Positions 7,713-48,976 of a DNA stretch of 64,000 bases are shown here, piece by piece. Made by a program: the position numbers and the translations under genes. The stretch spans positions 5,229 to 69,228 of the forward strand of contig JAUIEX010000002.1 in the NCBI GenBank assembly GCA_030429725.1. Direction: 5' to 3'. This DNA is from Alphaproteobacteria bacterium. Lineage in GTDB: Bacteria > Pseudomonadota > Alphaproteobacteria > Rickettsiales > UBA8987. How positions within the stretch are numbered: the stretch's first letter is position 1; every line of letters begins with the position of its first letter. The notes beneath the pieces are model-generated. The model made no database searches and was not told the origin of the DNA. It saw only the letters and a program-made list of their open reading frames with translations.

Positions 7713-7741
7713 AAAATACAGCAGTCACGATGAATTAGGAC

Positions 7742-8213: not shown

Positions 8214-8225
8214 TAGGAGTATTTT

Positions 8226-8696: not shown

Positions 8697-8742
8697 CAAT
8701 ACACTATTTATTAATCTCTAATTATTCAGGGCTTCATACAAA

Positions 8743-32349: not shown

Positions 32350-32457
32350 TACGCCTCCATAGTTTGCAGTCAGCGGTATGCAGTAAGCGGTGCGCCGTTT
32401 TTTATTCGTCATTGCGAGGAGCCATCAAGCGACGAAGCAATCTCCCGCCTCTTGAAG

Positions 32458-32478
32458 ACTGCTAACTGCTCACTAACT
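32458..32478. repeat. Degenerate 7-nt periodic array directly after the fibre-gene stop
   Basis: ACTGCTA ACTGCTC ACTAACT on the + strand, abutting the stop at 32480..32482. Confidence 0.5.
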
Positions 32479-34070: not shown

Positions 34071-34108
34071 GGCTAAATTCAAATTGGTTGTTGGCATGGT
34101 TTTCTCCT
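34071..34108. repeat. 38-bp direct repeat, copy 2 (orphan RBS plus ATG plus 9 fibre codons)
   Basis: Identical to 33347..33384. On the minus strand it opens a 33-codon ORF (33996..34097) antisense to the 3' end of hepT. Confidence 0.95.
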
Positions 34109-34138
34109 GTTTTGGTGATTAAAAAATTCGTCATTGCC

Positions 34139-34292
34139 TAACTCCCCCTTCACGGGGGAGTCTGAATTTTAAGCATTAGCGCATAAATTCAGGTGGGGGT
34201 CATGTCGCTACATCTGAAGGCTGCAAAGAACCCCCACCGGATCACGCATCGTTTCACTCGCGCGCTCCGACTCCCCCGTGAAGGGGGAGTTA
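34139..34292. mobile_element. MITE-like nested-hairpin repeat, copy A
   Basis: Termini are TAACTCCCCCTTCACGGGGGAGTC (34139..34162) and its reverse complement GACTCCCCCGTGAAGGGGGAGTTA (34269..34292). Internal inverted repeats are TGAATTT/AAATTCA and GGTGGGGG/CCCCCACC. Confidence 0.85.
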
Positions 34293-34334
34293 GAGACTAA
34301 AACAAAACTTACTCATTCCTTAATTTTTACTTGC

Positions 34335-34348
34335 AGAGAGAGAGAGAG
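34335..34348. repeat. (AG)7 dinucleotide microsatellite
   Basis: AGAGAGAGAGAGAG lies between TTGCAG (34331..34336) and TATAAT (34356..34361). Confidence 0.95.
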
Positions 34349-34496
34349 TTTAAGTTATAATTAAGGTTCATTTTTAGCTTTGGCTGAAATGAATTAGTGA
34401 GCTTTGCTCACATGTTCTTTCACCGGCTTTTTGTGGCATTCGCCACTTAACGATTAGGAAGCTGGGTCATTTTTTATCACCTAAACTTTTCTTGTT

Positions 34497-34697
34497 ATGA
34501 AACGTATTTGGAACAACCCATTTTTTAGATTTCTAATTTATTTCGTCGGCCTGCAGGCCTTCGGCCTCGGGGCCGTGCGGGTCATTTCTTGGATCGCAGG
34601 CCTAACCCCCGACATGGTCGGGTGGGTCATTTTTTGCTTTATTGCGGGCGGCATCATTGCCCCCATGGCAGTATCATGGGATTTTGATGAAGACTAA
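34497..34697 (+). CDS. Hypothetical 66-aa protein with two transmembrane helices
   Basis: An ATG ORF with two hydrophobic helices (FFRFLIYFVGLQAFGLGAV; VGWVIFCFIAGGIIAPMAV), followed by a long-stem hairpin and a T-run. No family recognised. Confidence 0.4.
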   Translation: MKRIWNNPFFRFLIYFVGLQAFGLGAVRVISWIAGLTPDMVGWVIFCFIAGGIIAPMAVSWDFDED

Positions 34698-34704
34698 TCC
34701 CGCC

Positions 34705-34806
34705 AAACCCTCCCTTCCCATACGGCACCGGGACGCAATCTTGCCGCAGCTTTCAAGCTCGCCGCATGATCGTCCAAACGCCGCAGGGGAAGGGAGGGTT
34801 TTTTTA
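34705..34806 (+). terminator. Long-range hairpin plus T-run after the 66-aa ORF (possible terminator)
   Basis: AAACCCTCCCTTCCC (34705..34719) pairs with GGGAAGGGAGGGTTT (34787..34801) and is followed by TTTTT. The loop is large (about 67 nt). Confidence 0.35.
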
Positions 34807-34844
34807 TGCCCGAAAGAAAAGCTTCTACCCAACTCCCCATCTAC

Positions 34845-35034
34845 TAAACTCCCCACTTGTGGGGGAGTCGAGGTGCGGCCTGTGAGATAAAATCGAGCGC
34901 CGCAACTCGGTGGGGGCTGCAAACTGCAAACCGCTAACTGCAACCCTCTACTCAACTCTCACCGCTCAATGACCCCCACCGGATCACGCATCGTTTCACT
35001 CGCGCTCTCCGACTCCCCCGTGAAGGGGGAGTTA
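34845..35034. mobile_element. MITE-like nested-hairpin repeat, copy B
   Basis: Left end is TAAACTCCCCACTTGTGGGGGAGTC and right end is GACTCCCCCGTGAAGGGGGAGTTA (35011..35034). The right ~60 nt are nearly identical to copy A. It contains a 7-nt periodic stretch (CTGCAAA CTGCAAA CCGCTAA CTGCAAC...). It ends 8 nt before the g15 stop. Confidence 0.85.
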
Positions 35035-35042
35035 AAGGCCAC

Positions 35043-38000
35043 CTAAACACTCACCTCCGCCGGTCGGCCACGCCCAATGCGCTCGGACATTTGATAAATC
35101 TTCACACTCACGCTGCTTTGCGGGCTGCCAAAATCGCTTGTTTGATCCGCAGCGTCATAGCTAACGGATGGAGTGGAGGCACTCAGCGTGCGAACCACAT
35201 CTTCACCGTCCAGAATGTCGATCTCATAGGCTTCGGAGGCCTCCGAAAGCGGCACGTCCACACCATCCCGCCAGCTGCCGCCATGGCGCGTGCGGCGAAT
35301 CCAGCTGATCGTCAGGTTGCCCGCCCCATCACGCTCCCCCGCCACATGCGCAGGTGCATATGGCTTCAGCGCATTGGCATTGTAAGCAAAGCTCTGCGCG
35401 TTGGTTTCTCCCAGTGTTTCACCAATCGAAACCGCCTTATAGAGCCGCGACAGGCCAATCAGCCCATCCGGCATATTCACCTTACCGATGCGGCTATCCA
35501 GCAGCACGAAATCATCCCCTGCCGCATGGCTTACAGTGGCATGCTCCGTGCCCAGCCGCCCGCGCAGCAAGCCACTTAAGCGATATTCACCCGCACTCAC
35601 CAGAGTTGCAGTGGTAAACTGAATCACCTCCCCGCCCAGCAGTGCCGCATTGGCGCCGTTCAGTAATGCCTCCGTAGAAACACTCTCCAGCGTGCCGTTG
35701 GAAAGCAGCACGGTCACATTATTTGCAACATCCATCACACCCGCCGCGCCATCCGCCAGCGCCGTAATGGCTTTGCCCATCACCGCCCGATTATTATTCA
35801 CCAGCACCTGCCCATAACGCGCACCGCCATCGTCCGAGCGATAGAGAATACTGCCCTGCCAGCCGGATTCCTCCCCGCTAACGGCCACCCGCAGCAAAGC
35901 GTCCTCTGCATCATCGCCGGCCAGCAGCGGCACATCCAGCAGCTTCAACCGCGTGGCGCCCGCCGGCACTTCCGCCTGAGTGCTGCCGCTTGTTTCCGCC
36001 GCCGCGGCGTCACTTTCATAAAGCGCCACATCCTCCGCAATGCCTTTGCAACGAAGGCGCCCACCTTCTTCCAGCGTGGTTTCCATAATGCGAATCGTGT
36101 GGCTTTGGCCGTTGCTTGTCACCGTCACCACATCGGCAGGAGAGATTGCCGCATATTTCGGCGGCAGGATAAACTGATAACGCATCCTCGCCGTCCAGGC
36201 CTGACACAGCGCCACATCCGCCGCCATCTTGCCGCGCTCATCCCCCATCACGATCGGGAAATTGATGATATGTTTTTGATCGCTCGCTACGGATTGCCGC
36301 GACGCACGCTGGGTGCCGATCTGATAATCAAAACCCCGGCTGAGGTAATTCACCTCCACCGCTTTGGGCAGATCGGCCTCCTGCCCGCGTGTGATGGCCA
36401 GATGCACCGCCTTTCCACGCTGTTTGAAGGGCACCAATTCATCCTCGGCAATCGTTACCGCAGACGCATTGCCGCGCGGCAGATAGTCCACCTGCCCGTC
36501 TTCTTCCCGCGCATCAAAAAAATACGCTGCCTGAAGCTGCGCAATGGCACTTCGCGCACTCACCGGCTGTTTCAGCACATAGCCTTCCACCAAATCACTC
36601 AGCTTGGTAACATCCATTTCACCACTATTTAAGCCCGCACGCAGCCCAATATCCTGCACAATGGCGGCAAGGGAAGATAACCCCATTTTACCATTCACCC
36701 AATGCCCGGTTTTCCATAATCCGCCATCGGTCCAGATATTTGTCATTTCCGGCCAGAAGGAAAATGGCCGCGCATCCCATGTCCAGACAAATTTTTGCTC
36801 CACCATGGTAGAGCCTTCCCACGCGGTTTCCGTGGCCTGCAACCCTAAACGCTGCGCAGAATTATCCACCCGCCCGCGTGAAAAGCGCGGAAAGTAGCTC
36901 TCCGAACTGGTCGGGTCATAAAACACATTCGGCTGGTTGGTTGCCCCATCTACGGATGGAAAACCATATTCCGTGAACCAGAATGGCTTGGATTCCGGCA
37001 CCCAGGCAGTGGTGCTGGCATCCGGGTTCACATGCTCATTTTCCCAGAACCATTGCAGATTTTTCCACGCATATTGTGGGCTGATCGCCGCCTGCGTCGT
37101 TCGCGCTTCATCCGTATATACCCAGTCATACCCCTCCCCGCTTGTCCAGCCATCAATGGCTTTTTGCAGGGTGATGCCGCTTTGCGGCTCATCCGTCAGC
37201 GGGAAATAGGCATCAATGCCGATAAAGTCGATATTCGCCGAAGCCCAGAGCGGATCAAGATTATACCAGCCATCATCCGTGTGGTGATATTCGCTCCAAT
37301 CCGCAGCATAGGTCACCTTCGTGCCACTACCCACAATCGCCTTTACACTGGCCGCCAAGCTCACCAGCGCGTCCACCGCCGGGAAGGAATCATCCCCACT
37401 ATCCTGCACGGAAGTTAAGCCCACCAGCTCCGAACCAATGACAAACGCATCCACATTCGAAGCATCTGCCAAGTTCGCATAATGCGTTATAAATTCATTA
37501 TAACCATTTGTTTTTGTAAAGAAATTAGCAACATTACTAACGCTCCCCGTCACCCGGCCGCGCCATGGCTTATTTTCCGTATCCATAAAAAACATCGGGT
37601 ACAGCATCACCTGATAGCCCCGGCTTTTCAGCTCCCCTATCAACCGCGCAACCGAAGCATCCGAAGGCGTGCCGCCATAAACCGGGTTACCATTTTCATC
37701 GAGCGAAATTTGCGGTGCGGAGGCACGATCCCAACTGCCCACGCCCCACTGATCCGGCTCTGTTGTCGCGCCATCTTTATATTCCACATAGGGCTTGATC
37801 GTACAGCCCCCGGCGTCCACATCATCCCCAAACCATGTCACCACAACACTCACCCATTCTAGGTTTGGAAAAGTGGCCTCCAGCTGATCCAGCGACGCCA
37901 GCACATCCGCCTTGCCGCTCACATTATTCTGGTTAATGCGCACCTGCTCACCGCTTTCGAAAAAATCATCGCCAATCTGCTGGCCAATCAGTTTTTTCTG

Positions 38001-38693
38001 CACGTTGGTGTCATACACAAACTCCCCGGAACCGGGAATCATCGTCATCGCCGTAATCTGCTCTTCCAGCGGCGCATCACCACTATTAAGCGCAGATTTA
38101 CGCACCTCAAACGTAAAGTTAGGAATACGATTGCCAAATTGCTCAAGCGGAAAATCCTCAATCACCACATACGCCACCCCGCGATAAGCCGGCACAAAAC
38201 CACTACCAAGCTCCGCCTCCATGGCAGAATCCGGCAATTGATCTTCCGTTCCTTTATACAGGCGATAAACACCTGAATAGTCATTGATATTAATGGTTTT
38301 AGCATCCGCCCACACGCGCACCACCTCGTCAATCTCCCCTTCGCAAATCGCAATGGCCAGCGTCACGCTATAGCTATAGCTGGTCTGGGAAACACTGCGG
38401 CCGCTGCCGCCCTTGCCGCTGCCGGATTCTGTCGTCGTAGCACTTTCCATAATCGGCTTAGACCAGATCACATTGCCCGCCACACGCGCCGTGCCATAAA
38501 GCTGCGGCACCATGCGGCCATAGGTGGAGGTTTGCACCTGCAAATCTTCCAAGCGCGGGCCTTCCACCACCAGCTTCTGCCCGGGCAACACACCCAGCGC
38601 AGTATCAATCTGCGCGCCCAGCTGAATGCCTTGCAGCGCAAGGCCAATATCCCCCGAAGCCGCTCCTGCTGCGCCTAATACAAGTGTAGTCAT
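35043..38693 (-). CDS. GTA g15-type host-specificity / baseplate protein
   Basis: 1216 aa. The N-terminus (PRLEDLQVQTSTYGRMVPQLYGTARVAGNVIWS...SYSYSVTLAIAICEGEI) and the central glycoside-hydrolase-like region are typical of RcGTA ORFg15 homologues. It is in the last structural gene position. Confidence 0.85.
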   Translation of the reverse strand: MTTLVLGAAGAASGDIGLALQGIQLGAQIDTALGVLPGQKLVVEGPRLEDLQVQTSTYGRMVPQLYGTARVAGNVIWSKPIMESATTTESGSGKGGSGRSVSQTSYSYSVTLAIAICEGEIDEVVRVWADAKTININDYSGVYRLYKGTEDQLPDSAMEAELGSGFVPAYRGVAYVVIEDFPLEQFGNRIPNFTFEVRKSALNSGDAPLEEQITAMTMIPGSGEFVYDTNVQKKLIGQQIGDDFFESGEQVRINQNNVSGKADVLASLDQLEATFPNLEWVSVVVTWFGDDVDAGGCTIKPYVEYKDGATTEPDQWGVGSWDRASAPQISLDENGNPVYGGTPSDASVARLIGELKSRGYQVMLYPMFFMDTENKPWRGRVTGSVSNVANFFTKTNGYNEFITHYANLADASNVDAFVIGSELVGLTSVQDSGDDSFPAVDALVSLAASVKAIVGSGTKVTYAADWSEYHHTDDGWYNLDPLWASANIDFIGIDAYFPLTDEPQSGITLQKAIDGWTSGEGYDWVYTDEARTTQAAISPQYAWKNLQWFWENEHVNPDASTTAWVPESKPFWFTEYGFPSVDGATNQPNVFYDPTSSESYFPRFSRGRVDNSAQRLGLQATETAWEGSTMVEQKFVWTWDARPFSFWPEMTNIWTDGGLWKTGHWVNGKMGLSSLAAIVQDIGLRAGLNSGEMDVTKLSDLVEGYVLKQPVSARSAIAQLQAAYFFDAREEDGQVDYLPRGNASAVTIAEDELVPFKQRGKAVHLAITRGQEADLPKAVEVNYLSRGFDYQIGTQRASRQSVASDQKHIINFPIVMGDERGKMAADVALCQAWTARMRYQFILPPKYAAISPADVVTVTSNGQSHTIRIMETTLEEGGRLRCKGIAEDVALYESDAAAAETSGSTQAEVPAGATRLKLLDVPLLAGDDAEDALLRVAVSGEESGWQGSILYRSDDGGARYGQVLVNNNRAVMGKAITALADGAAGVMDVANNVTVLLSNGTLESVSTEALLNGANAALLGGEVIQFTTATLVSAGEYRLSGLLRGRLGTEHATVSHAAGDDFVLLDSRIGKVNMPDGLIGLSRLYKAVSIGETLGETNAQSFAYNANALKPYAPAHVAGERDGAGNLTISWIRRTRHGGSWRDGVDVPLSEASEAYEIDILDGEDVVRTLSASTPSVSYDAADQTSDFGSPQSSVSVKIYQMSERIGRGRPAEVSV

Positions 38694-38854
38694 AGAGAAT
38701 CTCTGTGGTTAAAAGTTAATTATTTTTTATATAACGCCATGCAAAGCGGCGTAACTTTAGGCATTCCCTGCACGCACCAATGCAAAAAAGCCTTTTATAT
38801 AAATGACTTGAAAAAAAAAACGATCTGTTAGAATTAAGTTACAATCTTTTGAAT

Positions 38855-38977
38855 ATGGAAGCATTTTCAATATGCCTGATGTTATTTGGTGTGTGCGTTT
38901 CAATTGGAGCCTTAACGGCACAGCTTAAACGCATCGCCGATTCATTAAGCGATAAGAATCAGGAAACTGATTCTTAA
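38855..38977 (+). CDS. Possible 40-aa single-TM ORF on the opposite strand inside the g14-g15 spacer
   Basis: ATG ORF MEAFSICLMLFGVCVSIGALTAQLKRIADSLSDKNQETDS. TTGAAA-15 nt-TAGAAT lies upstream. No clear RBS. Weak support. Confidence 0.2.
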   Translation: MEAFSICLMLFGVCVSIGALTAQLKRIADSLSDKNQETDS

Positions 38978-39090
38978 GCTTAGCCCCAAGCCTTTGGGCG
39001 ATATGATGCGTCATCACTGGCTCGTTCCAGTAACGCAAGCATACTCGTTTACAAAAAGGCTTCGGGGCTTTTTTATTTTCCACTTCTCTC

Positions 39091-39726
39091 CTAACGAAAT
39101 TCATACACCCCCACCAAGCGCCGCTGCCAGCTTGCATCAAAATGCGTTTCCACCACCTTCCCGGCCGGCAGATAGGCATGGATGAGGCGGATGTTAGGTT
39201 CGTCATTCCCAACTTGATTGGGAATCCAGTCTATTTTTTTATTTCCTGGATCCCGGGTCGGATCCTGATACTGCGCATCAGGGCCGGGGATGACAGCACC
39301 GGGAAAACTTTTCTCACTGCCCACTGCGCACTGCTCACTAAAAACCAAACCAACATGCTGCGGCTGATGACGCATGCGGAACAAGCCAATCCGCACATCA
39401 TTAGTAACTCCCCCCTCGTGGGGGAGTCGGAATCTTTGACTCCGGCGGGGGGGGAAATTATTTCCCTCGTTACTCTTCTCTCTTTCATCTTGAATAAAAT
39501 GCCGCCCCAGCATCATCTGCAAACGCTCGCCATCCGGCTCACGCGGGTAATCCCGCTCATCATAATCTGCCACAAGCCCGCCAGAGGCGGAAGGGAGTTT
39601 TAATGCCCGCGCCACTTCCACAATCAGCCCAATGCAATCCACTCCCACGCCCCTCACCCGCCCCTGATGGTGAAATGGTGTTTCCAGCCAGCTGCGTGCC
39701 TCGGTGATTATTTCTTCATTACTCAT
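39091..39726 (-). CDS. GTA g14-type NlpC/P60 cell-wall peptidase carrying repeat-derived in-frame insertions
   Basis: N-terminus EARSWLETPFHHQGRVRGVGVDCIGLI (catalytic Cys context), then LFRMRHQPQHVGLVF and IHAY...VVE (His contexts). At 211 aa it is longer than the ~150 aa I recall for g14 homologues. The extra segments coincide with repeat DNA. Confidence 0.8.
   Translation of the reverse strand: MSNEEIITEARSWLETPFHHQGRVRGVGVDCIGLIVEVARALKLPSASGGLVADYDERDYPREPDGERLQMMLGRHFIQDEREKSNEGNNFPPRRSQRFRLPHEGGVTNDVRIGLFRMRHQPQHVGLVFSEQCAVGSEKSFPGAVIPGPDAQYQDPTRDPGNKKIDWIPNQVGNDEPNIRLIHAYLPAGKVVETHFDASWQRRLVGVYEFR
39315..39342. repeat. 7-nt periodic array inside the g14 coding sequence
   Basis: CACTGCC CACTGCG CACTGCT CACTAAA, translated on the minus strand as FSEQCAVGSE. 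Confidence 0.6.
39405..39458. mobile_element. MITE-like half element, copy C, in frame inside g14
   Basis: TAACTCCCCCCTCGTGGGGGAGTC followed by GGAATCTTTGACTCCGGCGGGGGGGG matches the reverse complement of the right end of copy D. It is read through as FPPRRSQRFRLPHEGGVT. Confidence 0.8.
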
Positions 39727-39935
39727 TGTAATACCTAGATAAATTGAAAAATAGATGAGACATTATTGTTTAGAGTGCTTTCGCTTTTCTTTGGTGCTAG
39801 GCAGCCAAGGTGAATAAAATTTTAGCGTACCTTTGATGAGCGGTTGCGCTGTGCGCAGAGCGAATCAACAAAAATGCCTACATGAATTTTCCGAATCCGA
39901 TGGCTAACAAAGCGCACGACGGAATGAAAAATGCT

Positions 39936-40778
39936 CTAGCGTGTTCCAGCTGTTTTCAGCATCGCATCCGTGCCCGGAACATGCGGAAAGCCCCTGAAAT
40001 TACTTATATTATTAAACCGCTGACGGCAGGTGGTCAGCGTTTTATCACACCCGCCAATCAGCGAATAGCCATCCCCCACCTCCACGTCATAGGGCATGGG
40101 CAACATCAATGTCAGCTCACCGTTATTAAAATATTTCACCTCCATGCTCAGGCCGTCATTTGCCCCGCCAGTGAAAATTATCTGCCCGTGATTAAACAAA
40201 CCGGCCGTTTCACTGCGTGCTGAATCTGCAAACACCGTGCGGCTGGTCACCGCGGTCACCGTCCCCGTCACCGTATGCGCAGCCAGATTCACCCCGCAGC
40301 GCCCGTCACCAAGCTCAGCGTCGCAGCCGGGGGTAAATAACCGCCCGATAGTGGTATCCAGCTTTTGCATCAATCCGCGCAACTCCGCTGTGAAATGGCC
40401 CTCCCCGGTCTGCACCTCACCAATCCAGCCCGTGCGCAGATTCATCACCCCATCTTCAGGGGATTCCGCATTCATCAAAAAGAGCGAAACTTCCGCATAA
40501 TCGTATTTTCCGGCCAGAATATCGGCCTCCGTAATTGCTTCATCATCCAGAAGCCCCAGAAGTTCCAGCGCATCCACCGCCAGATCATCCCGCCCCTTCA
40601 CCGCAGAGGCATTAAAACCACTGCCAGCCTGATAGGTTACGCTGTCATATTCAATATCCTGATCATGCTCCGTAAAGCCAAGCACGGCACCATCACGCCG
40701 TGTTATTTTCCAGCAGGTGGCCAGGCTGGTCAGCTCGCCACCCAGATGGGTTTGTAAATTTGCAGAAACTGTTTTCAT
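39936..40778 (-). CDS. GTA g13-type tail hub protein (DUF2163 / BR0599 family)
   Basis: MKTVSANLQTHLGGELTSLATCWKITRRDGAVLGFTEHDQDIEYDSVTYQAGSGF..., 280 aa, with a C-terminal Cys-containing region. Confidence 0.85.
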   Translation of the reverse strand: MKTVSANLQTHLGGELTSLATCWKITRRDGAVLGFTEHDQDIEYDSVTYQAGSGFNASAVKGRDDLAVDALELLGLLDDEAITEADILAGKYDYAEVSLFLMNAESPEDGVMNLRTGWIGEVQTGEGHFTAELRGLMQKLDTTIGRLFTPGCDAELGDGRCGVNLAAHTVTGTVTAVTSRTVFADSARSETAGLFNHGQIIFTGGANDGLSMEVKYFNNGELTLMLPMPYDVEVGDGYSLIGGCDKTLTTCRQRFNNISNFRGFPHVPGTDAMLKTAGTR

Positions 40779-40821
40779 TGAAGTCCATTCATCGTTAAAA
40801 GTGAAGTGATCGTAGCATCAT

Positions 40822-40898
40822 GTTCCCGTAGCTCAGCAGGATAGAGCAACAGATTCCTAATCTGTAGGTCGGAGGTTCGAATCCTCTCGGGAACACCA
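40822..40898 (+). tRNA. tRNA-Arg (anticodon CCT)
   Basis: Manual cloverleaf. Acceptor stem GTTCCCG/CGGGAAC, D stem GCTC/GAGC, anticodon stem ACAGA/TCTGT with loop TTCCTAA, 5-nt variable loop, T arm GGAGG-TTCGAAT-CCTCT, discriminator A, encoded CCA. Confidence 0.9.
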
Positions 40899-41013
40899 TT
40901 CATTCTTTTTAAGGGTTAAGCAACAGCGCCTTAAAAAGGATGGATAATTTTCATTTGAGGATGAGAACAATGTTCGAAACCGAGGGCAACAGCCCGCAGG
41001 TTCGGCGAAGCCA

Positions 41014-41032
41014 ATCCTCTCGGGAACACCAA
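41014..41032 (+). repeat. Duplicate of the tRNA-Arg 3' end (att-like scar)
   Basis: AATCCTCTCGGGAACACCA is identical to 40880..40898. It is preceded by AGGTTCG (40999..41005), which resembles the T arm. Confidence 0.85.
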
Positions 41033-41037
41033 CAGCC

Positions 41038-41640
41038 CTAAACCCGCACTTCCACCAGCGGGATTGGGTTCACGGCAAAGGCGCCATAATCCTGCAGGCT
41101 GACGGAAAGCTGATCCACATCAAACCGCACCGGCACATCAAATTCAAAATCCGCCTGAATTGCCACCCCGCCACCCGGCGCACTATCAAACGTCACCTCG
41201 CCTGTGGCGGCATCCACAGTAACACCACTGCTTTGCAGCACGGAATCCAAATAGATATTCACCGTGCTATCCACCGGCTTGGTGATGTTGCGTGTTTCAG
41301 TGCGCGCACCACTTTGATAGGTCTTCACCAGCTGGAACACGGTGGTTGCACCATCGCCCGCGCCAATCACCTGCCCGGTTGCCTGATAATCCGCATGATC
41401 CTTGAAACGAAAGCCATAGGCACGCCCTTTGCGGGCACGAAAAAACGCAATCAGCGTATCCAGCTCCGCTTGTGTTTTCACCCCACGCGCCACATTATAA
41501 CGCGCGCGCGCCGCACTCCAATTCACATTGCGCTGTTCATACCCATTGGCAAGCATCACAATATCCGTGGCATATTCCGGCCCCCCGGTGCTGCCATAGG
41601 CAATGGCATCGGGAAAGCGCACTTCATCAAAAGCGGCCAT
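41038..41640 (-). CDS. GTA g12-type distal tail protein (DUF2460 family)
   Basis: MAAFDEVRFPDAIAYGSTGGPEYATDIVMLANGYEQRNVNWSAARARYNV...LIAFFRARKGRAYGFRFKD, 200 aa. Confidence 0.85.
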   Translation of the reverse strand: MAAFDEVRFPDAIAYGSTGGPEYATDIVMLANGYEQRNVNWSAARARYNVARGVKTQAELDTLIAFFRARKGRAYGFRFKDHADYQATGQVIGAGDGATTVFQLVKTYQSGARTETRNITKPVDSTVNIYLDSVLQSSGVTVDAATGEVTFDSAPGGGVAIQADFEFDVPVRFDVDQLSVSLQDYGAFAVNPIPLVEVRV

Positions 41641-41700
41641 ATTTATTCCTAATGTTTTAGGTTAAATTATTATTTTAAATAATTGATTATAATTGCATTA

Positions 41701-42387
41701 TCACGCAACAGTTCCGCGCCGTTGCCCGCGCTCCGGCGCAAACTCATCCGCACGATTGAGGGATGGCTTAAATTCCTGCTCATTACCAATGCCTTCCAGC
41801 AGCGCACCCAAATCAAACGCGTGCTTCATGCCATTCTCCATTTCTTCCATGCGGGCATAATGACGCTCCGTCTGCACAATGGCCACCATCATATGCTGGC
41901 GCTCGGCAATATCCGCCATCTGATCCGGCGTCAGATCTTCCACGGACAGCTCACTATTACTGCCATCCAGATAATCCCCCAGTTTTTGGGCAAGTTTGTT
42001 CATGCCCTGCATGCTAACCGCCACGCCAAGCTTATCCAGCGCCGTGGTGAGTTTTTCTTTCATTTCCAGTGAAAGTACACGATCTTCTTCCGTCGCATAA
42101 CTTCCTGAATCACTATTATTTTCGGATGAAGCATCACCACTACCATCCACAATGCCCCCGGCATCCGCAGGGATTTCTCTAAAACCACGCGGATCATCAA
42201 AACCCGCATTCGCGTCTTCCGCCGCGCCTTGATTTGACACCGGCTGGTCGGCCGGCATGCCGTTAATCATCCTTGTTAATTCCGGTGGCAATTCAAGCAA
42301 ACTACGCACACCGGCACCGGCAAGGCCACTGCCAATTTTCTGCGCTTCTGCTGCCAATGCATCATAACTCATAGTTAAATATACCAT
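41701..42387 (-). CDS. Acidic 228-aa protein at the tape-measure (g11) position
   Basis: Assignment is by position only (between the major tail module and the g12-like gene). It is acidic, low-complexity and helical. I see no similarity to the Gly-rich RcGTA g11 sequence as I recall it. Confidence 0.3.
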   Translation of the reverse strand: MVYLTMSYDALAAEAQKIGSGLAGAGVRSLLELPPELTRMINGMPADQPVSNQGAAEDANAGFDDPRGFREIPADAGGIVDGSGDASSENNSDSGSYATEEDRVLSLEMKEKLTTALDKLGVAVSMQGMNKLAQKLGDYLDGSNSELSVEDLTPDQMADIAERQHMMVAIVQTERHYARMEEMENGMKHAFDLGALLEGIGNEQEFKPSLNRADEFAPERGQRRGTVA

Positions 42388-42418
42388 AAAAAGCTTTAAA
42401 ATTCATTAAAATAATACC

Positions 42419-42715
42419 TTAATGACCACCTAAATTAAGAAGTGATTCAAAAATATTGCTACCGCCATCCGCAGAAAAACGCCCACCGGACGCCCCCACC
42501 CCGTCTGAAAGACCGGAAAGCTGCTGCACAAAACCTGAAATTTCCTGAAATTGCTGAATTAATCGCAACATATCCTCCAATTGTTTCAGGCCATTGGTAA
42601 AATCATCGCTTATAATTGAACGAAACTCACTTCGCAAAATGCGGCTTGTGCGGAGCAATGTTTCCATTTGCGCCTGCATTTCCTGCAATTGATTTGAGCT
42701 TAAATTCTCTTCCAT
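42419..42715 (-). CDS. 98-aa coiled-coil protein at the tail-chaperone (g10) position
   Basis: Assignment is by position only. It starts 9 nt after the major-tail stop. Helical heptad-rich sequence with a Gly-rich tail. Confidence 0.3.
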   Translation of the reverse strand: MEENLSSNQLQEMQAQMETLLRTSRILRSEFRSIISDDFTNGLKQLEDMLRLIQQFQEISGFVQQLSGLSDGVGASGGRFSADGGSNIFESLLNLGGH

Positions 42716-42724
42716 ATCAAACCT

Positions 42725-43135
42725 TTAAGCAGCGTTATAAGTAACATTTCCGGAGGATTGCAGCACCACGCGCACCTCCTCCGCACCGTTGATTGCCCCC
42801 TGCCGCTGATAATCCCTGATCATCGCCGGAAGCACCATGTCATCCCCATTACCAAAGCTCACTTTTACATTGGCCGCCGCGCCATTAAAGGCCATTGCCC
42901 GCAGGCTTTCTTCCACTGAAGCATCCGTAAAAAGCCCTTCCAGCGTCAACTGCACCTGCGCAATGCCACTTTCACCCAGCTCCTTCTGCCATGCACCGCT
43001 GGTGACATACACGGCCGGCACCGGGCGGCGCTGAATGCGAAGCTCTGTCACGCGCACACCCGGCAATAACGTAAACACTTCCGGATCCGCACCATCACCC
43101 AATGCACATGTTAAATTTTTACCCGCCTGAATCAT
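42725..43135 (-). CDS. GTA g9-type major tail protein (TP901-1 family)
   Basis: 136 aa. ...VTSGAWQKELGESGIAQVQLTLEGLFTDASVEESLRAMAF... matches the RcGTA g9 pattern. Position fits. Confidence 0.8.
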   Translation of the reverse strand: MIQAGKNLTCALGDGADPEVFTLLPGVRVTELRIQRRPVPAVYVTSGAWQKELGESGIAQVQLTLEGLFTDASVEESLRAMAFNGAAANVKVSFGNGDDMVLPAMIRDYQRQGAINGAEEVRVVLQSSGNVTYNAA

Positions 43136-43143
43136 AGCTCAAC

Positions 43144-43548
43144 CTATTGTTTTTGAATACGAAATCTTATTAAACACTCAGCCTGATAGCCAATCACATC
43201 GCGGTGCACTTCCGCCTCAACGCCCTCCAGCCAGTGGTCAATCACCGCGTGGTTAGATAACGCTAAATTCGAGGCCTCCAACACAGCCACCGCCCTTTCG
43301 ATAATCTCAAGCACCGTCAGGCGTGATGGCACATCGCTATGCGCGCGCAAAACAACATCCAGACGCGAAATATCCACGTTCAATGCCGGTTCACTCACAG
43401 ATTCAGTCATGTTAATTAAGAGATAGGGCGATTCAGCGCCTTGCGGTGCATGGTCATAAATCCCGCTAACCAGCGCCGCCAATGTTGCATCCGCCGTCAG
43501 CTCACTATAAATCGCCGCTTGAAGCTCTTTCCAGCCCAAAGCACTCAT
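43144..43548 (-). CDS. GTA g8-type tail completion protein (DUF3168)
   Basis: 134 aa, LTADATLAALVSGIYDHAPQGAESPYLLI. ATGA overlap with the upstream gene. Confidence 0.75.
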   Translation of the reverse strand: MSALGWKELQAAIYSELTADATLAALVSGIYDHAPQGAESPYLLINMTESVSEPALNVDISRLDVVLRAHSDVPSRLTVLEIIERAVAVLEASNLALSNHAVIDHWLEGVEAEVHRDVIGYQAECLIRFRIQKQ

Positions 43549-43898
43549 AACGCCACCCCACTTTCAGCAATAATGTCCAACTGCTCTTTGCGCCCCGTTG
43601 GATCAGACAAACTCCGAATATTGAGCATTTCATCCTGATAACAGATACTCATAGATTGAGTTAGATTATCCTTATATCGTATTGTTATTTTATATTTTTT
43701 CTTATTATTAATTTTACCATTTTCCATAATCTCTTTACTGGCCTGCGCAGGCGAATATGGCAGAACTTCCGCCCAGACCGTGCCAATATTCACCCAACTC
43801 ACCGTAAAACCTCCGGCAAAATCGGATGTGCGAACAGGATTACGAAAACTAATGCGTGATGTCAGACGGGATGCCAGAATATCTTTTTTCATCACCAC
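43545..43898 (-). CDS. GTA g7-type head-tail adaptor / head-closure protein
   Basis: 117 aa, RISFRNPVRTSDFAGGFTVSWVNIGTVWAEVLPYS... typical of SPP1 gp16 / HK97-type adaptors. Confidence 0.8.
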   Translation of the reverse strand: MVMKKDILASRLTSRISFRNPVRTSDFAGGFTVSWVNIGTVWAEVLPYSPAQASKEIMENGKINNKKKYKITIRYKDNLTQSMSICYQDEMLNIRSLSDPTGRKEQLDIIAESGVAL

Positions 43899-43899
43899 C

Positions 43900-44442
43900 T
43901 CACAAATAAATCACGCGGTAAGGGTCATATTGCATCAGCGTATCGGGCGGCAGATTTGTCTGGCCACGATGCTCAAACATATAGGCCACATGCGCCAGCA
44001 AGCCCTGTTGAATATCATAGGGAACCTGGCTGGCATCGCCATAACCCGCCACATATTCCACCTCCACCATGTGCGCCACGGGGGAAATATCGAACCGCAA
44101 TGCGGCATTCCCGGCCGAAAGCGTATAAGCACTGCCGGATAATGCCTGTGAAGTGCCGTCACGTGTGGTCAGCGTCACCGCCATAATTGATTGCACGGGC
44201 CCACGCATCAATTGCACCCGGGCGGGCGCAAAATCATCAAAACCCATTTTCCAGCGCTGCGTAATCAGCGAACGCCGCATGAATTTCTCCGCTGCCAGCC
44301 GCGCTGCGCGAATCATCTGCAGCAAGGTGATATCCTCATCCTGCTCATCAATTTTTAGGTATAATTTTGTTTCTGCCAAACTGAGTGGCTCCGTTGACGG
44401 AGCAAGAGTTTGGGTTAAATGCGGCATGCGTGATGTCAGCAT
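43900..44442 (-). CDS. GTA g6-type head-tail connector (gp6-like)
   Basis: 180 aa, LSLAETKLYLKIDEQDEDITLLQMIRAARLAAEKFMRRSLITQ... is a connector-family N-terminus. Confidence 0.8.
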   Translation of the reverse strand: MLTSRMPHLTQTLAPSTEPLSLAETKLYLKIDEQDEDITLLQMIRAARLAAEKFMRRSLITQRWKMGFDDFAPARVQLMRGPVQSIMAVTLTTRDGTSQALSGSAYTLSAGNAALRFDISPVAHMVEVEYVAGYGDASQVPYDIQQGLLAHVAYMFEHRGQTNLPPDTLMQYDPYRVIYL

Positions 44443-44501
44443 GGATAGACTCCAGGAATTGGGATTACAGAGATAATGTGAATAGTGTGCAGTGTTCGGT
44501 T

Positions 44502-44670
44502 TAACTCCCCCTTCACGGGGGAGTCTGAATTTCGAGCGTGAGCGAAGAAATTCAGGTGGTGGTTTCTGCCGATCGAAGGCAGAAAACAGAGGACTGACGA
44601 GCTAATTTCTGACTTCTGACTAACCCCCACCGGAATCAGAGATTCCGACTCCCCCGTAAAGGGGGAGTTA
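44502..44670. mobile_element. MITE-like nested-hairpin repeat, copy D
   Basis: Left end TAACTCCCCCTTCACGGGGGAGTC (44502..44525), right end GACTCCCCCGTAAAGGGGGAGTTA (44647..44670). Internal pairs are TGAATTT/AAATTCA and TTTCTGCC/GGCAGAAA. Confidence 0.85.
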
Positions 44671-44719
44671 TAGCTTTTTCTCTTTAACTGCTCATTACCC
44701 ACTGCATACTGCTTACCAA

Positions 44720-45130
44720 CTAAGCCACCGGTGCATCGGCAGCCTGGGATTGCAGTGCCACGGCGGCAATCGGCGCATTGCCGGTATTGCCTGCCGGCGT
44801 AATAGTCAGGCGCACATAGCGCTTGCTGCCATTGTAACCAATCTTCTTCACCACATCGTCATTGGCAAAGGTGAAGGAAGCATCCGCTTCCGTGCCTAAC
44901 AGATTCGCATCCGCCACGGCTGCCGCGTCACTAAGGTCACTGGCGTCACCCTCTTCCACCAGCGTGGTGAAGGTGGCATCGGCGTCAGCCAGCGTGCCGG
45001 TCAGAATGCCAAATTCCAGCGTGTTAAAGCCCTGCATGTCAATGATCTGGCTCACCGCCGCCGTGTTATCCGTAATCACCGCCGGGCTGATCGCACGGCT
45101 GAGTTTAATGTTGTTATGGAGGTCTTTCAT
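44720..45130 (-). CDS. 136-aa phage head-associated protein (possible decoration/cement protein), not in the canonical RcGTA set
   Basis: An intact ORF between the capsid and connector genes, bracketed by MITE copies D and E. Ala/Asp/Thr-rich beta-type sequence ending ...KKIGYNGSKRYVRLTITPAG... The family name is not recognised with certainty. Confidence 0.4.
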   Translation of the reverse strand: MKDLHNNIKLSRAISPAVITDNTAAVSQIIDMQGFNTLEFGILTGTLADADATFTTLVEEGDASDLSDAAAVADANLLGTEADASFTFANDDVVKKIGYNGSKRYVRLTITPAGNTGNAPIAAVALQSQAADAPVA

Positions 45131-45169
45131 AGTGTTATCCTTTTTTGTGATTTGTTAGATTGTGAACTC

Positions 45170-45381
45170 TAATTCCCCCCTGAATGCCCCGAAGCGCGAA
45201 GCGCGTGGGGCGATTCAAAATGTGGGGGAGTCGCAGAGCCGCTTGCGTAGCGCGGCGAAGCGTGGGGGGGGCATTTTACAAAAAGATTGCTCAGCAAAAT
45301 AATCAAGGCCGTGTGTTCCTTGAACACCCCCCACGACTCACACCTTCGGTGCTCGTCTGCTCCCCCTCAAGGGGGGAGCTA
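45170..45381. mobile_element. MITE-like repeat, copy E (subfamily 2, with a nested insertion in its left hairpin)
   Basis: TAATTCCCCCC [TGAATGCCCCGAAGCGCGAAGCGCGTGGGGCGATTCAAAATG] TGGGGGAGTCGCAGAGCCG... ...GCTCCCCCTCAAGGGGGGAGCTA. It is collinear with copy F apart from the bracketed insertion. Confidence 0.8.
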
Positions 45382-45393
45382 TTTTTACGCAAC

Positions 45394-46584
45394 CTAAGAA
45401 GCCAATTTCAGCAGTTTGATGGCCTCAAAGTTCACCACATCACCGCCCACACGTTTGGTGCTATAGAACTTCACGAACGGTTTTTCAGTGTACGGATCAC
45501 GCAGGATGCGAACACCCGCACGGTCAACAATCTGATAGGCACGGCTGAAATCACCCACCGCCACGGAAAGTGTGTCCGTATCCGGCGTTGGCATATCCGC
45601 CGCCTGAAGCACAGGAACGCCCATCAGCGTATCCGGCGTGCCCGTCACCAGACCCGGATTCCACAGATACTGATTCGTGGTCGCTTCTTTCAGCAACCGC
45701 GCCTGCTGCACGGCAGAACGGCTCATCAGGAAGGTGGCGCGGGTGGCATATTCCTCTTTCAGTGCATAGAAAATCTGCACCAGACCATCGGCTGTCACCT
45801 GCCCGTCCGTGCCGGAGTCGATCTGTTCGATCTGCCCCCAGCCTGTGCCGGCATCATAGCTTAAGATGCCGCGCGGCTTGCCCACTCCGTCCCCGGAAAT
45901 AAACGCCGTGTTTTCCTTGCGGGTAAACACATCCGTCAGCTTGCCGGAAAGCCAGCCTTCAATATCCACGCTCGCATCATCAATCAGCTTTTGTGTTGCT
46001 TTGGGTTGAGCGCGGAGTTCATGCACAGGGATGATCTTTTTATTCACCTGCGGTGTGGTGGTATCGGAAATGCTGTCTGCCTCCGCATACCAGCCCGCGC
46101 CGGCCTCATCCTTATCCACAATCACTTCCAGCGAATCGGAGGAAATCGTCTCCACCGCCGCCAGTTGACGCATAGGGGAAGATTCAAACACCGTCTTAGC
46201 AATGGTTTGTGCCATGGTTGGCGTCACCAGATAGCCGCCATCCGGGTCGGAAGCCGCAGAAAGCGCCTTCTTCTCAAGGTAGGAAAGTTCTTCCTCCACA
46301 CCTTTGCGCAGATAGTTACAAAAGGCGGTCTTATGATCGCGCACATCAGGGCTGGCAATGGTAGCACCCCCCATCTCCGGCCGGCTGATGGCCGTTTCCA
46401 GCGTATGCATCCGGCTCTTTTGCTCATCCAGCGCGTTGGAAATGCGCCCCAAATGCTCTGTTGTCAGCGCGTCGGCATTGCCTTTGCGCTCAATTTCCTG
46501 CAAGCGGCGATCATTGATCGACTTAAACTGCTCCCAGGTGTTGCCAAGCGTTTCCATACGCTCCGTTAATTCACGTAAACTCAT
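45394..46584 (-). CDS. GTA g5-type major capsid protein (HK97 fold)
   Basis: 396 aa with an N-terminal coiled-coil delta-like region, then an HK97-family body (...GGYLVTPTMAQTIAK..., ...NQYLWNPGLVTGTPDTLMGVPV...). Confidence 0.9.
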   Translation of the reverse strand: MSLRELTERMETLGNTWEQFKSINDRRLQEIERKGNADALTTEHLGRISNALDEQKSRMHTLETAISRPEMGGATIASPDVRDHKTAFCNYLRKGVEEELSYLEKKALSAASDPDGGYLVTPTMAQTIAKTVFESSPMRQLAAVETISSDSLEVIVDKDEAGAGWYAEADSISDTTTPQVNKKIIPVHELRAQPKATQKLIDDASVDIEGWLSGKLTDVFTRKENTAFISGDGVGKPRGILSYDAGTGWGQIEQIDSGTDGQVTADGLVQIFYALKEEYATRATFLMSRSAVQQARLLKEATTNQYLWNPGLVTGTPDTLMGVPVLQAADMPTPDTDTLSVAVGDFSRAYQIVDRAGVRILRDPYTEKPFVKFYSTKRVGGDVVNFEAIKLLKLAS

Positions 46585-46671
46585 ACGATTTCTCCTTTGT
46601 GATGAGTTGGTTAGTTAGAGTAAAGTAGCGCCGTCGCTATAAAGCGCGCGAGCCAGTAACCGCCTGCCTTA

Positions 46672-46828
46672 TAACTCCCCCCTCGAGGGGGAGTCGCAGA
46701 GCCGTCTACGTAGCACGGCGATGCGTGGGGGGGCCGCCTGAATACAACTATAACTGAATGACCCCCCACGACTCCGCGTCGCTGCATGCGCAGCTTGCTT
46801 CGTCCGCTCCCCCTCAAGGGGGGAGCTA
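46672..46828. mobile_element. MITE-like repeat, copy F (subfamily 2)
   Basis: Left end TAACTCCCCCCTCGAGGGGGAGTC (46672..46695), right end GCTCCCCCTCAAGGGGGGAGCTA (46806..46828). Its last 3 nt are the protease stop codon. Confidence 0.85.
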
Positions 46829-47383: not shown

Positions 47384-47397
47384 GATTTCTCCTATTT

Positions 47398-47530: not shown

Positions 47531-47585
47531 TTGCCTACTGGCTCGCAGATCACCCTGTCATCCTTGAGGGCAAGAAAAAGTTTCT

Positions 47586-47664
47586 GTCATTCCAGCGAAA
47601 GCTGGAATCTCTAACCTCTTGCACTGATCATTATCCAGAGATCCCAAATCAAGTTTGGGATGAC
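47586..47664. mobile_element. Second small hairpin-ended element (GTCATTCC...GGAATC type)
   Basis: GTCATTCCAGCGAAAGCTGGAATC (47586..47609; 8-bp stem, GAAA loop) and the inverted ATCCCAAATCAAGTTTGGGATGAC (47641..47664). A relative, GTCATTCCCAACTTGATTGGGAAT, lies inside g14 (39203..39225). GTCATTGCGAGG...GCAATC lies at 32408..32444. Confidence 0.6.
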
Positions 47665-47682
47665 AAAAACGCCCCCTACGCA

Positions 47683-47710
47683 CTGCCTACTGCCTACTGC
47701 CTACTGCACA
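47683..47710. repeat. Heptamer tandem array abutting the portal stop codon
   Basis: CTGCCTA x3 plus CTGCACA, then the stop (CTA at 47711..47713). On the mRNA strand this reads TAG TGTGCAG TAGGCAG TAGGCAG TAGGCAG. Confidence 0.9.
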
Positions 47711-48976
47711 CTACTCCCCATCAACCCCCGCCAGCTTCCGTTTCTCGTCCTGTGTCAGGAAATCCGCCTCATTCAGCCGCTTCCACAGCTTTTCCCGGCG
47801 CAGCCCAAGCGCGTGAATGCCATCCACATCATAACTCAGTTTCAGCGCATGCCCTTCCCTTTGCGGGAACATCGGCACCAGCCAGCCATTCAGCGCCGCC
47901 GCGAAATGATCCAGCATCGGCAGCACAGTCTGCTCCCACAGCGCCAGCCGCGCTTCCGCTAAATTGCTATAGGTATTATCCCCGGGAATGCCCAGCAGCT
48001 GCGGCGGCACCCCAAAAGCCAGCGCAATGTCGCGCGCGGCGGAATGCTTCGCCTCCATAAAATCCATATCTTTCGGCGAAAGGCTCATCTCCTGCCATTC
48101 CAGCCCGCCTTCCAGCAGCAGCGGCCTTCCTGCATTGGCAGCACCTGAAAATTGCTCCTGCATTTCCGCTTTCAGGCGGTCAAACTGCTCATCGGAAAGG
48201 TTGCCACTGCCCTCCCCCTTCACCACCAGCGCGCCGGATGGCTTTGCGCCATTCTGTAATAAAGCCTGATTCCACTGCGCCGCCTGATTATGCTGGTCAA
48301 TGCTATAAGCCGCCGCTTCCACCGGGGAAAGCCCATGCCAGTCATCCGTCGGGTGGAAGGTTTTTAGATGCAATATCTGCGACCTGCCCGTAATCGCATC
48401 CACCGGATAGCGCCTGGTCACACCATCCACCGTATAATCATAGGCCGCCGGCAACCCGCCCCGTCCGGCAATCACCTGCACCCTGTCCGGGCGCAGCGTA
48501 TAAATCTCACGCGGCGAATCCGCACCCACCGCCAGCAAAAACACATTGCCCGCCAGCAAACGCTGCACCGCCATATTCTCTATAAGCTCCGTACCCTGAC
48601 AGCGCGGGGATGGGCACTCCATCAGGCTTAAAAGCGGATGCTGATTCACCGCAACCGCACCCTCCGGCCTTTGCATGGAAAGCTTCCATGGCACACTGGC
48701 CGCGGCCTCCGCCACCATGCGGATGGCGCGGTGTGCAATCACATTCCGGCGATAAGCCTCCTCCGCAAAGCGGGCATAATCCCGCCCCATCCACACTGCC
48801 TTGCCAGGTTGCGTAAAATAGGTTGAGGTTGCAGATGCCAGCGGCAGCGCATAGTCCGGCGCAAATTGTTTCGCCTCGTTGTTGCTGCCATTGGCCGCAT
48901 CATTACCGGTAAGAAGGTTAAATAGTCCCTGCATGCGGGACGGCTTCGCCCCGCGTTGTTTCTGCGCTTTGCTCAT
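47711..48976 (-). CDS. GTA g3-type portal protein (HK97 family)
   Basis: 421 aa, ...RNVIAHRAIRMVAEAAASVPWKL...LLAGNVFLLAV...HPTDDWHGLSPVEAAAYSIDQHN... portal-family sequence. Confidence 0.9.
   Translation of the reverse strand: MSKAQKQRGAKPSRMQGLFNLLTGNDAANGSNNEAKQFAPDYALPLASATSTYFTQPGKAVWMGRDYARFAEEAYRRNVIAHRAIRMVAEAAASVPWKLSMQRPEGAVAVNQHPLLSLMECPSPRCQGTELIENMAVQRLLAGNVFLLAVGADSPREIYTLRPDRVQVIAGRGGLPAAYDYTVDGVTRRYPVDAITGRSQILHLKTFHPTDDWHGLSPVEAAAYSIDQHNQAAQWNQALLQNGAKPSGALVVKGEGSGNLSDEQFDRLKAEMQEQFSGAANAGRPLLLEGGLEWQEMSLSPKDMDFMEAKHSAARDIALAFGVPPQLLGIPGDNTYSNLAEARLALWEQTVLPMLDHFAAALNGWLVPMFPQREGHALKLSYDVDGIHALGLRREKLWKRLNEADFLTQDEKRKLAGVDGE

Follow-up and report, generated by a model that had tools for sequence, protein, structure and literature searches.

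Probable in-frame insertion of palindromic repeats at two turns of a g14-type peptidase in a gene transfer agent cluster

The g14-type NlpC/P60 peptidase gene of an uncultured alphaproteobacterium that bears a gene transfer agent (GTA) carries two in-frame insertions of repeat DNA, which enlarge a core of about 143 residues by about 67. The gene lies on contig JAUIEX010000002.1 (assembly GCA_030429725.1), within a stretch of 64,000 nt that we analyzed and refer to as the window. Our preferred reading, which we consider probable, is that repeats were inserted at two turns of the g14 protein, were retained in frame, and are read as loops on an intact core. Insertion 1 (ins1) lies between the putative catalytic residues Cys31 and His124, and insertion 2 (ins2) lies between His124 and the third triad residue, His183; we call the repeat DNA beneath them block 1 and block 2 (Table 1). 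The first-pass annotation of this DNA, made by a model from the letters alone, had placed two inserts, together of about 60 residues, between the catalytic residues. The location stands, and spacing counts correct the size to about 67.

A phmmer search of 5.8 billion proteins with g14 returned 210 homologues. Among the best 120 of these, only the window protein (P0001) and its nearest homologue (P0002) exceed 175 aa, and the rest measure 126–175 aa. We aligned the window protein with 23 homologues, 22 of ordinary length (133–175 aa) plus P0002 (alignment A1). This comparison, which the first-pass annotation had proposed, resolved two private insertions with boundaries to about 3 codons. The P64–H124 spacing is 59 residues in the window protein vs. 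33–41 in the 22 ordinary-length homologues, and the H124–H183 spacing is 58 vs. 10–15. The C31–P64 spacing of 32 falls in the family range of 24–38, and the H183–W200 spacing of 16 is identical in every homologue. Both insertions are absent from all 22 ordinary-length homologues, and P0002 has a different insertion of its own. None of the 210 homologues has these residues. Among the genes of the 64-kb window, an in-frame repeat insertion was seen in g14 alone.

Block 1 corresponds to one arm of an element that resembles a miniature inverted-repeat transposable element (MITE). Its best match, over 39405–39451, is the right arm of an intergenic copy at 44624–44670 (47 nt, 85% identity, E = 2.9e-9), followed by 47484–47528 (45 nt, 82%, E = 2.3e-7), and there are shorter matches to seven or more other copies. 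A 24-mer singled out by the first-pass annotation has seven matches in the window at three or fewer mismatches vs. none in 100 shuffles. Full MITE-like copies at 44502–44670 and 34139–34292 have inverted ends of 28–32 nt that are 91–96% complementary; by eye, no flanking direct repeat (target-site duplication) is seen around 39400–39470. Hairpin A of block 1 has the form ACTCCCCC-N5-GGGGGAGT, and the g14 copy is the only 1 of 12 copies (34.1–47.5 kb) that lies inside a long open reading frame (ORF). The intergenic arms read in one frame as PHRNQRFRLPRKGGV and PHRNQRFRLSHQGR, and the g14 copy reads in the equivalent frame as PPRRSQRFRLPHEGGV. Block 1 itself is translated as FPPRRSQRFRLPHEGGVT, so that its earlier description as a half MITE read through in this way agrees with the best match, the many copies, and the translation. 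The predicted RNA fold of the block (−35.1 kcal/mol, z = −3.5) makes the hairpins visible; the small GGGAAATTATTTCCC hairpin at its edge has no repeat copy that we found elsewhere. Judged by these matches, block 1 is derived from repeat DNA.

Block 2 is likewise derived from repeat DNA as judged by its layout, and its hairpins fit the published definition of CGTC-tagged repetitive extragenic palindromes (REPs): a CGTC/TGTC (or CCTC) tag, an 8- to 9-bp stem starting with AT, a 4- to 5-nt loop, a CCA tail, and frequent inverted dimers (PMC3733652). The core of the block is a tail-to-tail inverted dimer at 39201–39295, in which the stretch GTCAT...ATGAC (39202–39294) spans 93 nt, or 31 codons. 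The tags are CGTC at 39201–39204 and TGTC, on the reverse strand, at 39292–39295; the stems form 8 of 8 pairs in REP 1 and 7 of 8 in REP 2; and both tails read CCAG (the intergenic pair at 47585–47665 ends in CTCT). At 5 nt, the loop of REP 1 is within the defined length, and at 26 nt, that of REP 2 is outside it; other loop lengths occur in some CGTC REP families (PMC3733652). A 19-nt spacer separates the in-gene dimer from the heptamer array. The same order of REP end, 16–20 nt, and heptamers recurs at 47638–47714 and 44648–44712, and the dimer architecture recurs at positions 1806–1877 of a locus (L057) from a metagenome-assembled genome (MAG) labeled Rickettsiales.

The modules that the first-pass annotation had listed for block 2 are all present: the hairpin at 39202–39225, the palindrome CCTGAT-N7-ATCAGG, and 3.6 CACTGCN heptamers, given as three to four. 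What it overlooked is the second, inverted hairpin, which completes the REP dimer. The in-window counterpart of the first hairpin matches weakly (47640–47667; 28 nt, 82%, E = 0.036), and loci of other genomes (L028, L105, L062, and L057) match over 35 nt at 83–86% (E = 6e-5). The ACTGCNNACTGC heptamer motif occurs 19 times in the window vs. 4.0 expected, a count reached in 0 of 100 shuffles, and the other clear arrays (32366–32391, 32458–32469, 34916–34941, 44701–44712, and 47682–47714) all lie outside long ORFs. Besides the in-gene pair, tagged hairpins stand in the window at 47585–47611, 47638–47665, and 32404–32447 (the last read directly); shuffled window sequence gives 0–2 hits under looser criteria. 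The repeat matches, the hairpin-A count, and the heptamer arrays all bear out the earlier statement that these modules are otherwise intergenic in the window. The RNA fold of block 2 is predicted at −49.1 kcal/mol (z = −2.2).

Neither block contains a stop or a frameshift, as had been stated, and the conserved residues resume in frame after each of them (A1). In gene orientation, two of the three frames of ins1 and one of the three frames of ins2 are open. The intergenic TACTGCC heptamers place TAG in all three frames of the gene strand, whereas the in-gene CACTGCN copies are stop-free, with a C in place of the T that would create TAG. On the opposite strand, an ORF of 153 codons (39142–39603, plus strand) crosses both blocks; it is most likely spurious and mirrors the stop-poor palindromes.

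We mapped the insertions onto the NlpC/P60 fold, another check that the first-pass annotation had proposed, with an AlphaFold2 model built from A1 (mean predicted local distance difference test score, pLDDT, 79.6). The core is modeled at pLDDT above 90, and ins1 and ins2 are modeled at 56–61 and 41–58, respectively. In this model, ins1 falls between a helix (81–86) and a strand (111–118), and ins2 forms the turn joining the strands that carry His124 (121–130) and His183 (179–185). A Foldseek search against the Protein Data Bank (PDB) returned LytE, MepS, and other NlpC/P60 domains as top matches, with TM scores to the target of up to 0.73. Both low-confidence segments are accordingly predicted to be disordered loops, at turns where family length already varies slightly. 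The surface-loop placement suggested earlier is thus in keeping with the model, in which low-confidence loops stand on a confident NlpC/P60 core.

The identity of the host gene rests on its neighbors as well as on its residues. Upstream lies the g13 hub gene (280 aa, PF09931/PF09356), and downstream lies the g15 GTA_TIM gene (1216 aa; GTA_TIM, Phage-tail_3, and Rcc01698_C, PF13547/PF13550/PF23666). Farther upstream of g13 are genes for DUF2460, tail tube, tail completion, head completion, connector, capsid, prohead protease, portal, and terminase. Given this RcGTA-like gene order, the ORF occupies the g14 position. The 211-aa ORF with its GVDCIGLI, PQHVGLVF, and IHAY motifs, as first described, is found both in the ORF list and by direct codon reading. 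It matches TIGR02219 (phage_NlpC_fam) at E = 4e-14 in two separate stretches, with 53.2 bits against a curated cut-off of 81.9. Cys31, His124, and His183 are invariant in 24 of 24 aligned sequences and match the catalytic residues of MepS/Spr, and the window protein keeps 20 of the 20 family-invariant columns, including those downstream of each insert (A1). On this evidence, the window g14 is an NlpC/P60 peptidase of an RcGTA-like cluster with predicted hydrolase activity. Among solved structures, a profile search matched MepS/Spr and LytE but no deposited chain of RcGTA g14, whose structure could not be reconstructed (PMC7296036). Capsid relatives at 65–72% identity are labeled as Rickettsiales or Hyphomicrobiales MAGs.

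The loop that holds ins1 also carries an insertion in a second lineage. P0002 (193 aa, 37% identity overall; assembly GCA_964588995.1, locus L001) is without ins2 and has a 31-residue excess in its P64–H124 segment. The DNA of this insert (L001 10282–10363) is an 82-nt dimer of CGTC-tagged hairpins, in frame, which aligns end to end with the intergenic stretch L001 8710–8791 (82 nt, E = 1.6e-10) and with several others. The element differs from block 1 and lies a few residues upstream of ins1. As read from these alignments, P0002 is a second, independent case of in-frame REP insertion in g14. We also considered whether element length is always a multiple of three and dropped this rule: it holds for the elements in g14 (93 nt), in L057 (72 nt), and at 47585–47665 (81 nt) but not for those of L001 (82–83 nt).

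Two further observations concern the L001 cluster. Its order at 7325–10582 runs from g7 through an unrelated 198-aa ORF to g13 and g14, with REP copies filling the gaps. The tail completion, tube, tape measure, and g12 genes (g8–g12) are missing at the expected place, which may reflect rearrangement or decay. The two genomes, with capsids 69% identical, both have a MITE-like element with TAACTCCCCC ends in the gap that separates the portal and protease genes (window 47396–47528 and L001 4483–4615), which could be an old orthologous insertion.

In the account that we favor, short non-autonomous palindromic repeats of this genome’s intergenic DNA would have landed twice in g14. Their sources would be the MITE-like element with TAACTCCCCC ends and the CGTC/TGTC-tagged REP hairpins with their accompanying heptamer arrays, and both landing sites would be turns linking secondary-structure elements in the NlpC/P60 fold. 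Selection on the gene would let only stop-free insertions that keep the frame persist, and for this reason the repeats would now be translated, giving an intact catalytic core with two disordered loops, one of about 21 residues and one of about 47. The gene would still be translated and functional, and the inserts would be tolerated passengers rather than functional additions. Transposition or recombination would have brought them in; we know of no dedicated transposase for CGTC REPs.

Several points weigh against this account. The nearest homologue is only 37% identical overall, which limits the precision of the insertion boundaries, and a close orthologue with an empty site was not found, as the closest capsid relatives (L119 and L120) end before g14. 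RcGTA g14 has 150 aa, and a protein about 45% larger might not fit the tail channel. The TIGR02219 score lies under its curated cut-off, which could stem from split matching around the inserts or from some decay, and a Pfam scan gave no match of PF00877 to the g14 ORF. The organization of the cluster looks loosened in other ways, with long, repeat-filled intergenic gaps and an opposite-strand tRNA gene. Finally, four of six frames of ins1 and three of six frames of ins2 are open (7 of 12 together), and these GC-rich palindromes are stop-poor generally, so that the missing stop is only moderate evidence for selection. The two in-frame insertions, together with the invariant residues kept on both sides of them, are stronger evidence for it.

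The main rival takes g14 to be a young pseudogene, or a gene under relaxed selection, in a decaying GTA cluster, where repeat invasion would signal the decay and the open frame would be a mere remnant. It draws on the weak profile score and absent Pfam match, the long g13–g14–g15 gaps, the tRNA-Arg gene inside the cluster, and the openness of the inserts in several frames regardless, as well as on the crowding of all hairpin-A repeats of the window in and around the GTA cluster and the lack of g8–g12 at the expected place in the related L001 cluster. We nevertheless consider decay unlikely. The two separate insertions, about 204 nt in total, each keep the frame and lack stops; every one of the 20 invariant residues is retained, including the Cys-His-His triad; and all other tested head and tail genes of the window are intact, with full-length domain matches. 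Moreover, the in-gene heptamers differ from the intergenic ones exactly at the base that makes TAG, and the divergence of REP 2 (an enlarged loop and one stem mismatch) suggests that time has elapsed without disruption. The proposal that the inserts have been co-opted, as a spacer or interaction surface of a tail-carried enzyme or as mRNA hairpins that tune translation or stability of the late tail genes, is less probable still. Both blocks have kept their hairpin potential, a REP dimer stands independently in the ins1 loop of the second lineage, and a role at the RNA level is widely assumed for REPs (PMC3733652). However, recent insertions would have still-paired stems just as well, the elements and their residue positions differ between the two lineages, as a merely permissive loop would predict, and nothing sets these copies apart from neutral passengers.

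Two further explanations fare worst. Repeat copies might have been misjoined into the gene during metagenome assembly, since the source looks like a 78-kb metagenome-assembled contig and repeats are classic chimera points. However, two Logan contigs from run SRR24442552 (L121 and L122) are 100% identical to window positions 39260–40935 and 34976–39284; they share 25 nt at the nested palindrome inside block 2 (39260–39284), jointly span the whole gene with both blocks, and are reported in a second sample too. The in-gene repeats are only 70–85% identical to other copies, so that repeat collapse cannot have made the in-gene blocks, and a chimera would not be expected to restore frame and conserved residues on both sides twice. 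These matches indicate that the assembly is correct across the gene, and we find such an artefact hardly credible. Even less plausible is that the inserts are native, lineage-specific peptide extensions whose repeat similarity arose by chance. The in-window evidence for block 2 is individually weak (hairpin E = 0.036; heptamers E = 0.11), but the E value of block 1 is 2.9e-9, and the four-part layout of block 2 (tag-stem-tail, inverted partner, spacer, and heptamers) recurs in intergenic DNA at 47585–47715 and partly in L057. The absence of these residues from every one of the 210 homologues tells against native origin as well.

The preferred reading, of repeats inserted and retained in frame at two turns of g14, has clear precedent. 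Ogata et al. reportedly described in 2000 and 2002 that Rickettsia palindromic elements (RPEs) are inserted in frame in Rickettsia ORFs. In-frame insertion of palindromic repeats is known for RPEs and for REPs of many bacteria (PMC3733652; PMC1166351; PMC10969869), and 85 of the 728 RPEs of Rickettsia felis lie inside ORFs (PMC1166351). The parallel with RPEs drawn by the first-pass annotation holds at the level of the superfamily: CGTC-tagged REPs, whose definition the block 2 hairpins fit, are mainly alphaproteobacterial, and RPE-4 and RPE-6 of Rickettsia have been assigned to them (Di Nocera, De Gregorio and Rocco 2013, PMC3733652). As with RPEs, short palindromic repeats occur here in intergenic and coding DNA, in frame, at fold-compatible sites, and are absent from orthologues. 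The present case differs in its host, an uncultured GTA-bearing alphaproteobacterium, in the sequences of its elements, and in concentration: one small gene has taken up two composite inserts of at least three module types, which add 47% to the core length, and it is the one gene affected within the 64-kb window, whereas in Rickettsia the habit is genome-wide.

Like the published CGTC REPs, the g14 REPs have the tag, the 8-bp stem starting with AT, the 5-nt loop in the case of REP 1, the CCA tail, and inverted dimers with 16- to 24-nt spacers. They differ in that the dimers here are tail-to-tail, an orientation that the paper calls rare, in the 26-nt loop with nested palindrome of REP 2, and in the attached heptamer array. 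In published cases, intragenic REP dimers encode 20–30 aa and clusters encode 43–82 aa, and the targets are mainly DNA repair and replication genes (PMC3733652); here the target is a phage-derived virion enzyme. Bacterial MITEs known to form in-frame fusions (ERIC, BOX, Correia/NEMIS, and QMITE1; PMC10969869) resemble the source of block 1 in being non-autonomous elements bounded by terminal inverted repeats, with an in-gene copy that is translated; block 1, in contrast, is one arm only, and a target-site duplication was not seen by eye. RcGTA g14 and the TIGR02219 family share with the window protein the place between the g13 hub and g15 megatron, the NlpC/P60 fold, the Cys-His-His triad, and the N- and C-terminal blocks; they differ in length (150 aa in RcGTA vs. 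211 aa) and in His–His spacing (10–15 in the family vs. 58).

A literature search joining GTA and REP gave no report of in-frame repeat insertion in a GTA gene, and a search for the repeat sequences as text strings gave primer matches only. The window g14 is a fresh example of an already known phenomenon and changes no concept; it adds an uncultured alphaproteobacterium with a GTA to the hosts, and a virion protein of phage origin to the targets, of REP and RPE insertion in proteins. What stands out is that the addition is large relative to the protein, lies between catalytic residues, and recurs in a second lineage: the catalytic His–His spacing is stretched from about 14 to 58 residues, and the enzyme is nearly half again as large. 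With the second lineage hit in the ins1 loop by a different element, two insertion-tolerant sites are marked in the NlpC/P60 fold, and the value of the case lies in its documentation and in this pointer to permissive loops. RcGTA g14 (Rcc01697) degrades peptidoglycan, is needed for tail formation, and is probably a monomer inside the tail channel (PMC7296036). Since it is thought to be borne in the tail lumen and essential for tail assembly, the enlarged window protein would be a natural test of how much extra mass is tolerated.

A bolder version holds that g14 turns are recurrent REP landing sites in repeat-rich alphaproteobacteria, that the inserts are perhaps non-neutral, and, wider still, that GTA clusters are sinks for REPs. 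We think this distinctly improbable, less so than co-option alone. If it held, 67 disordered residues would alter the packing or ejection of an enzyme that rides in the GTA tail channel, or the hairpins of the coding sequence would act on mRNA to set the dose of late tail proteins. GTA clusters, which are expressed in few cells, would then collect REPs as a domesticated virus tolerates invasion or starts decaying.

Table 1. Coordinates in the window of the g14 gene, its predicted catalytic codons, the two insertions, and the repeat features
Feature	Position	Strand	Basis
g14-type NlpC/P60 peptidase ORF, 211 aa, holding both inserts	39091..39726	−	ORF list, TIGR02219, homologues, neighbors, modeled fold
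Predicted catalytic Cys31 codon (GVDCIGL)	39634..39636	−	Invariant column of A1; read from sequence
Predicted catalytic His124 codon (PQHVG)	39355..39357	−	Invariant in A1; aligned to the catalytic-strand His of MepS/Spr
His183 codon (LIHAY), predicted third triad residue	39178..39180	−	Invariant in A1; aligned to ‘FVHA’ of MepS/Spr
Insertion 1 (ins1), ~21 aa, aa 89–109, NNFPPRRSQRFRLPHEGGVTN	39400..39462	−	Window sequence only in A1; boundaries ±2–3 codons
Insertion 2 (ins2), 47–49 aa, ~aa 130/132–178, ..SEQCAVGSEKSF...KKIDWIPNQVGNDEPN	39193..39339	−	Window sequence only in A1
Block 1, one arm of TAACTCCCCC...GGGGGAGTTA MITE-like element	39405..39452	+	Matches to intergenic copies; RNA fold
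Block 1, hairpin A	39407..39427	+	RNA fold
Block 1, hairpin B	39428..39445	+	RNA fold
Block 1, G-run	39447..39454	+	Matches to intergenic copies
Minor additional hairpin GGGAAATTATTTCCC bordering block 1	39452..39466	+	RNA fold; hairpin scan
Full-length intergenic MITE-like element, 169 nt, right arm the best block 1 match	44502..44670	+	Repeat comparison
Block 2, REP 1: CGTC tag, 8-bp stem ATTCCCAA/TTGGGAAT, loop CTTGA, tail CCAG	39201..39229	+	Direct reading; external matches
Block 2, AT-rich 16-nt spacer joining both REPs	39230..39245	+	Direct reading; layout as L057 1806–1877
Block 2, REP 2, inverted: TGTC tag, stem ATCCCCGG/CCCGGGAT with 7/8 pairs, 26-nt loop, tail CCAG	39246..39295	−	Hairpin scan
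Palindrome CCTGAT-N7-ATCAGG nested in the REP 2 loop	39264..39282	+	Direct reading
Block 2, CACTGCN heptamer array, period 7, 3.6 copies, read as SEQCAVGS	39315..39339	+	Tandem-repeat analysis
Intergenic counterpart of block 2: tail-to-tail TGTC REP dimer (47585–47665), 16-nt spacer, TACTGCC heptamers	47585..47715	+	

Beyond g14, the repeats form a local landscape of their own. All 12 copies of hairpin A lie in or beside the GTA cluster, between genes or just past stop codons (34100–47720), and the first 34 kb, with its translation and ribosomal genes, is free of them. Repeats thus have a local hot spot in the GTA region. A hairpin of the form ACTCCCCC-N5-GGGGGAGTCGGA is found in species-representative genomes of widely separated phyla, in more than 116 stretches; among the matches listed are Nitrospirales, Terriglobia, Ca. 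Versatilivorator, Acidobacteria, and Rickettsiales-labeled MAGs (loci L002–L117). It often lies within a few hundred bases of CGTC-tagged REPs, as in L028 at 2778 and 3250. This pattern points to a modular repeat system that is common to several phyla. At 32366–32476, a CGTC-tagged hairpin of the type inserted in P0002 (CGTC ATTGC ... GCAAT CTCC) stands between two inverted heptamer arrays, one on either side, which may form the termini of a larger composite element. The TACTGCC array at 47681–47715 begins at the stop codon of the portal gene and has TAG in all three coding-strand frames; a possible role is that of an inbuilt pad for stopping translation.

The surroundings of g14 in the cluster have features of their own as well. 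The gaps between g15 and g14 (397 nt, 38694–39090) and between g14 and g13 (209 nt, 39727–39935) are unusually long, and the former holds, by eye, a candidate plus-strand ORF of 40 codons (~38856–38977) for a hydrophobic peptide. A scan for promoters and terminators around g14 found nothing besides the repeat hairpins, and an Rfam scan of the window returned one tRNA and nothing else. A tRNA-Arg(CCT) gene (40822–40898, plus strand) stands between g13 and g12, antisense to the GTA genes; GTA clusters are normally transcribed as one unit, and an opposite-strand tRNA gene there is unusual. Directly after the capsid gene lies an ORF of 136 aa (44720–45130, minus strand) with no Pfam match. The related loci L119 (10182–10592) and L120 (1747–2157) have an equally long ORF behind their capsid genes, and the 136-aa ORF is probably a real, uncharacterized GTA gene.

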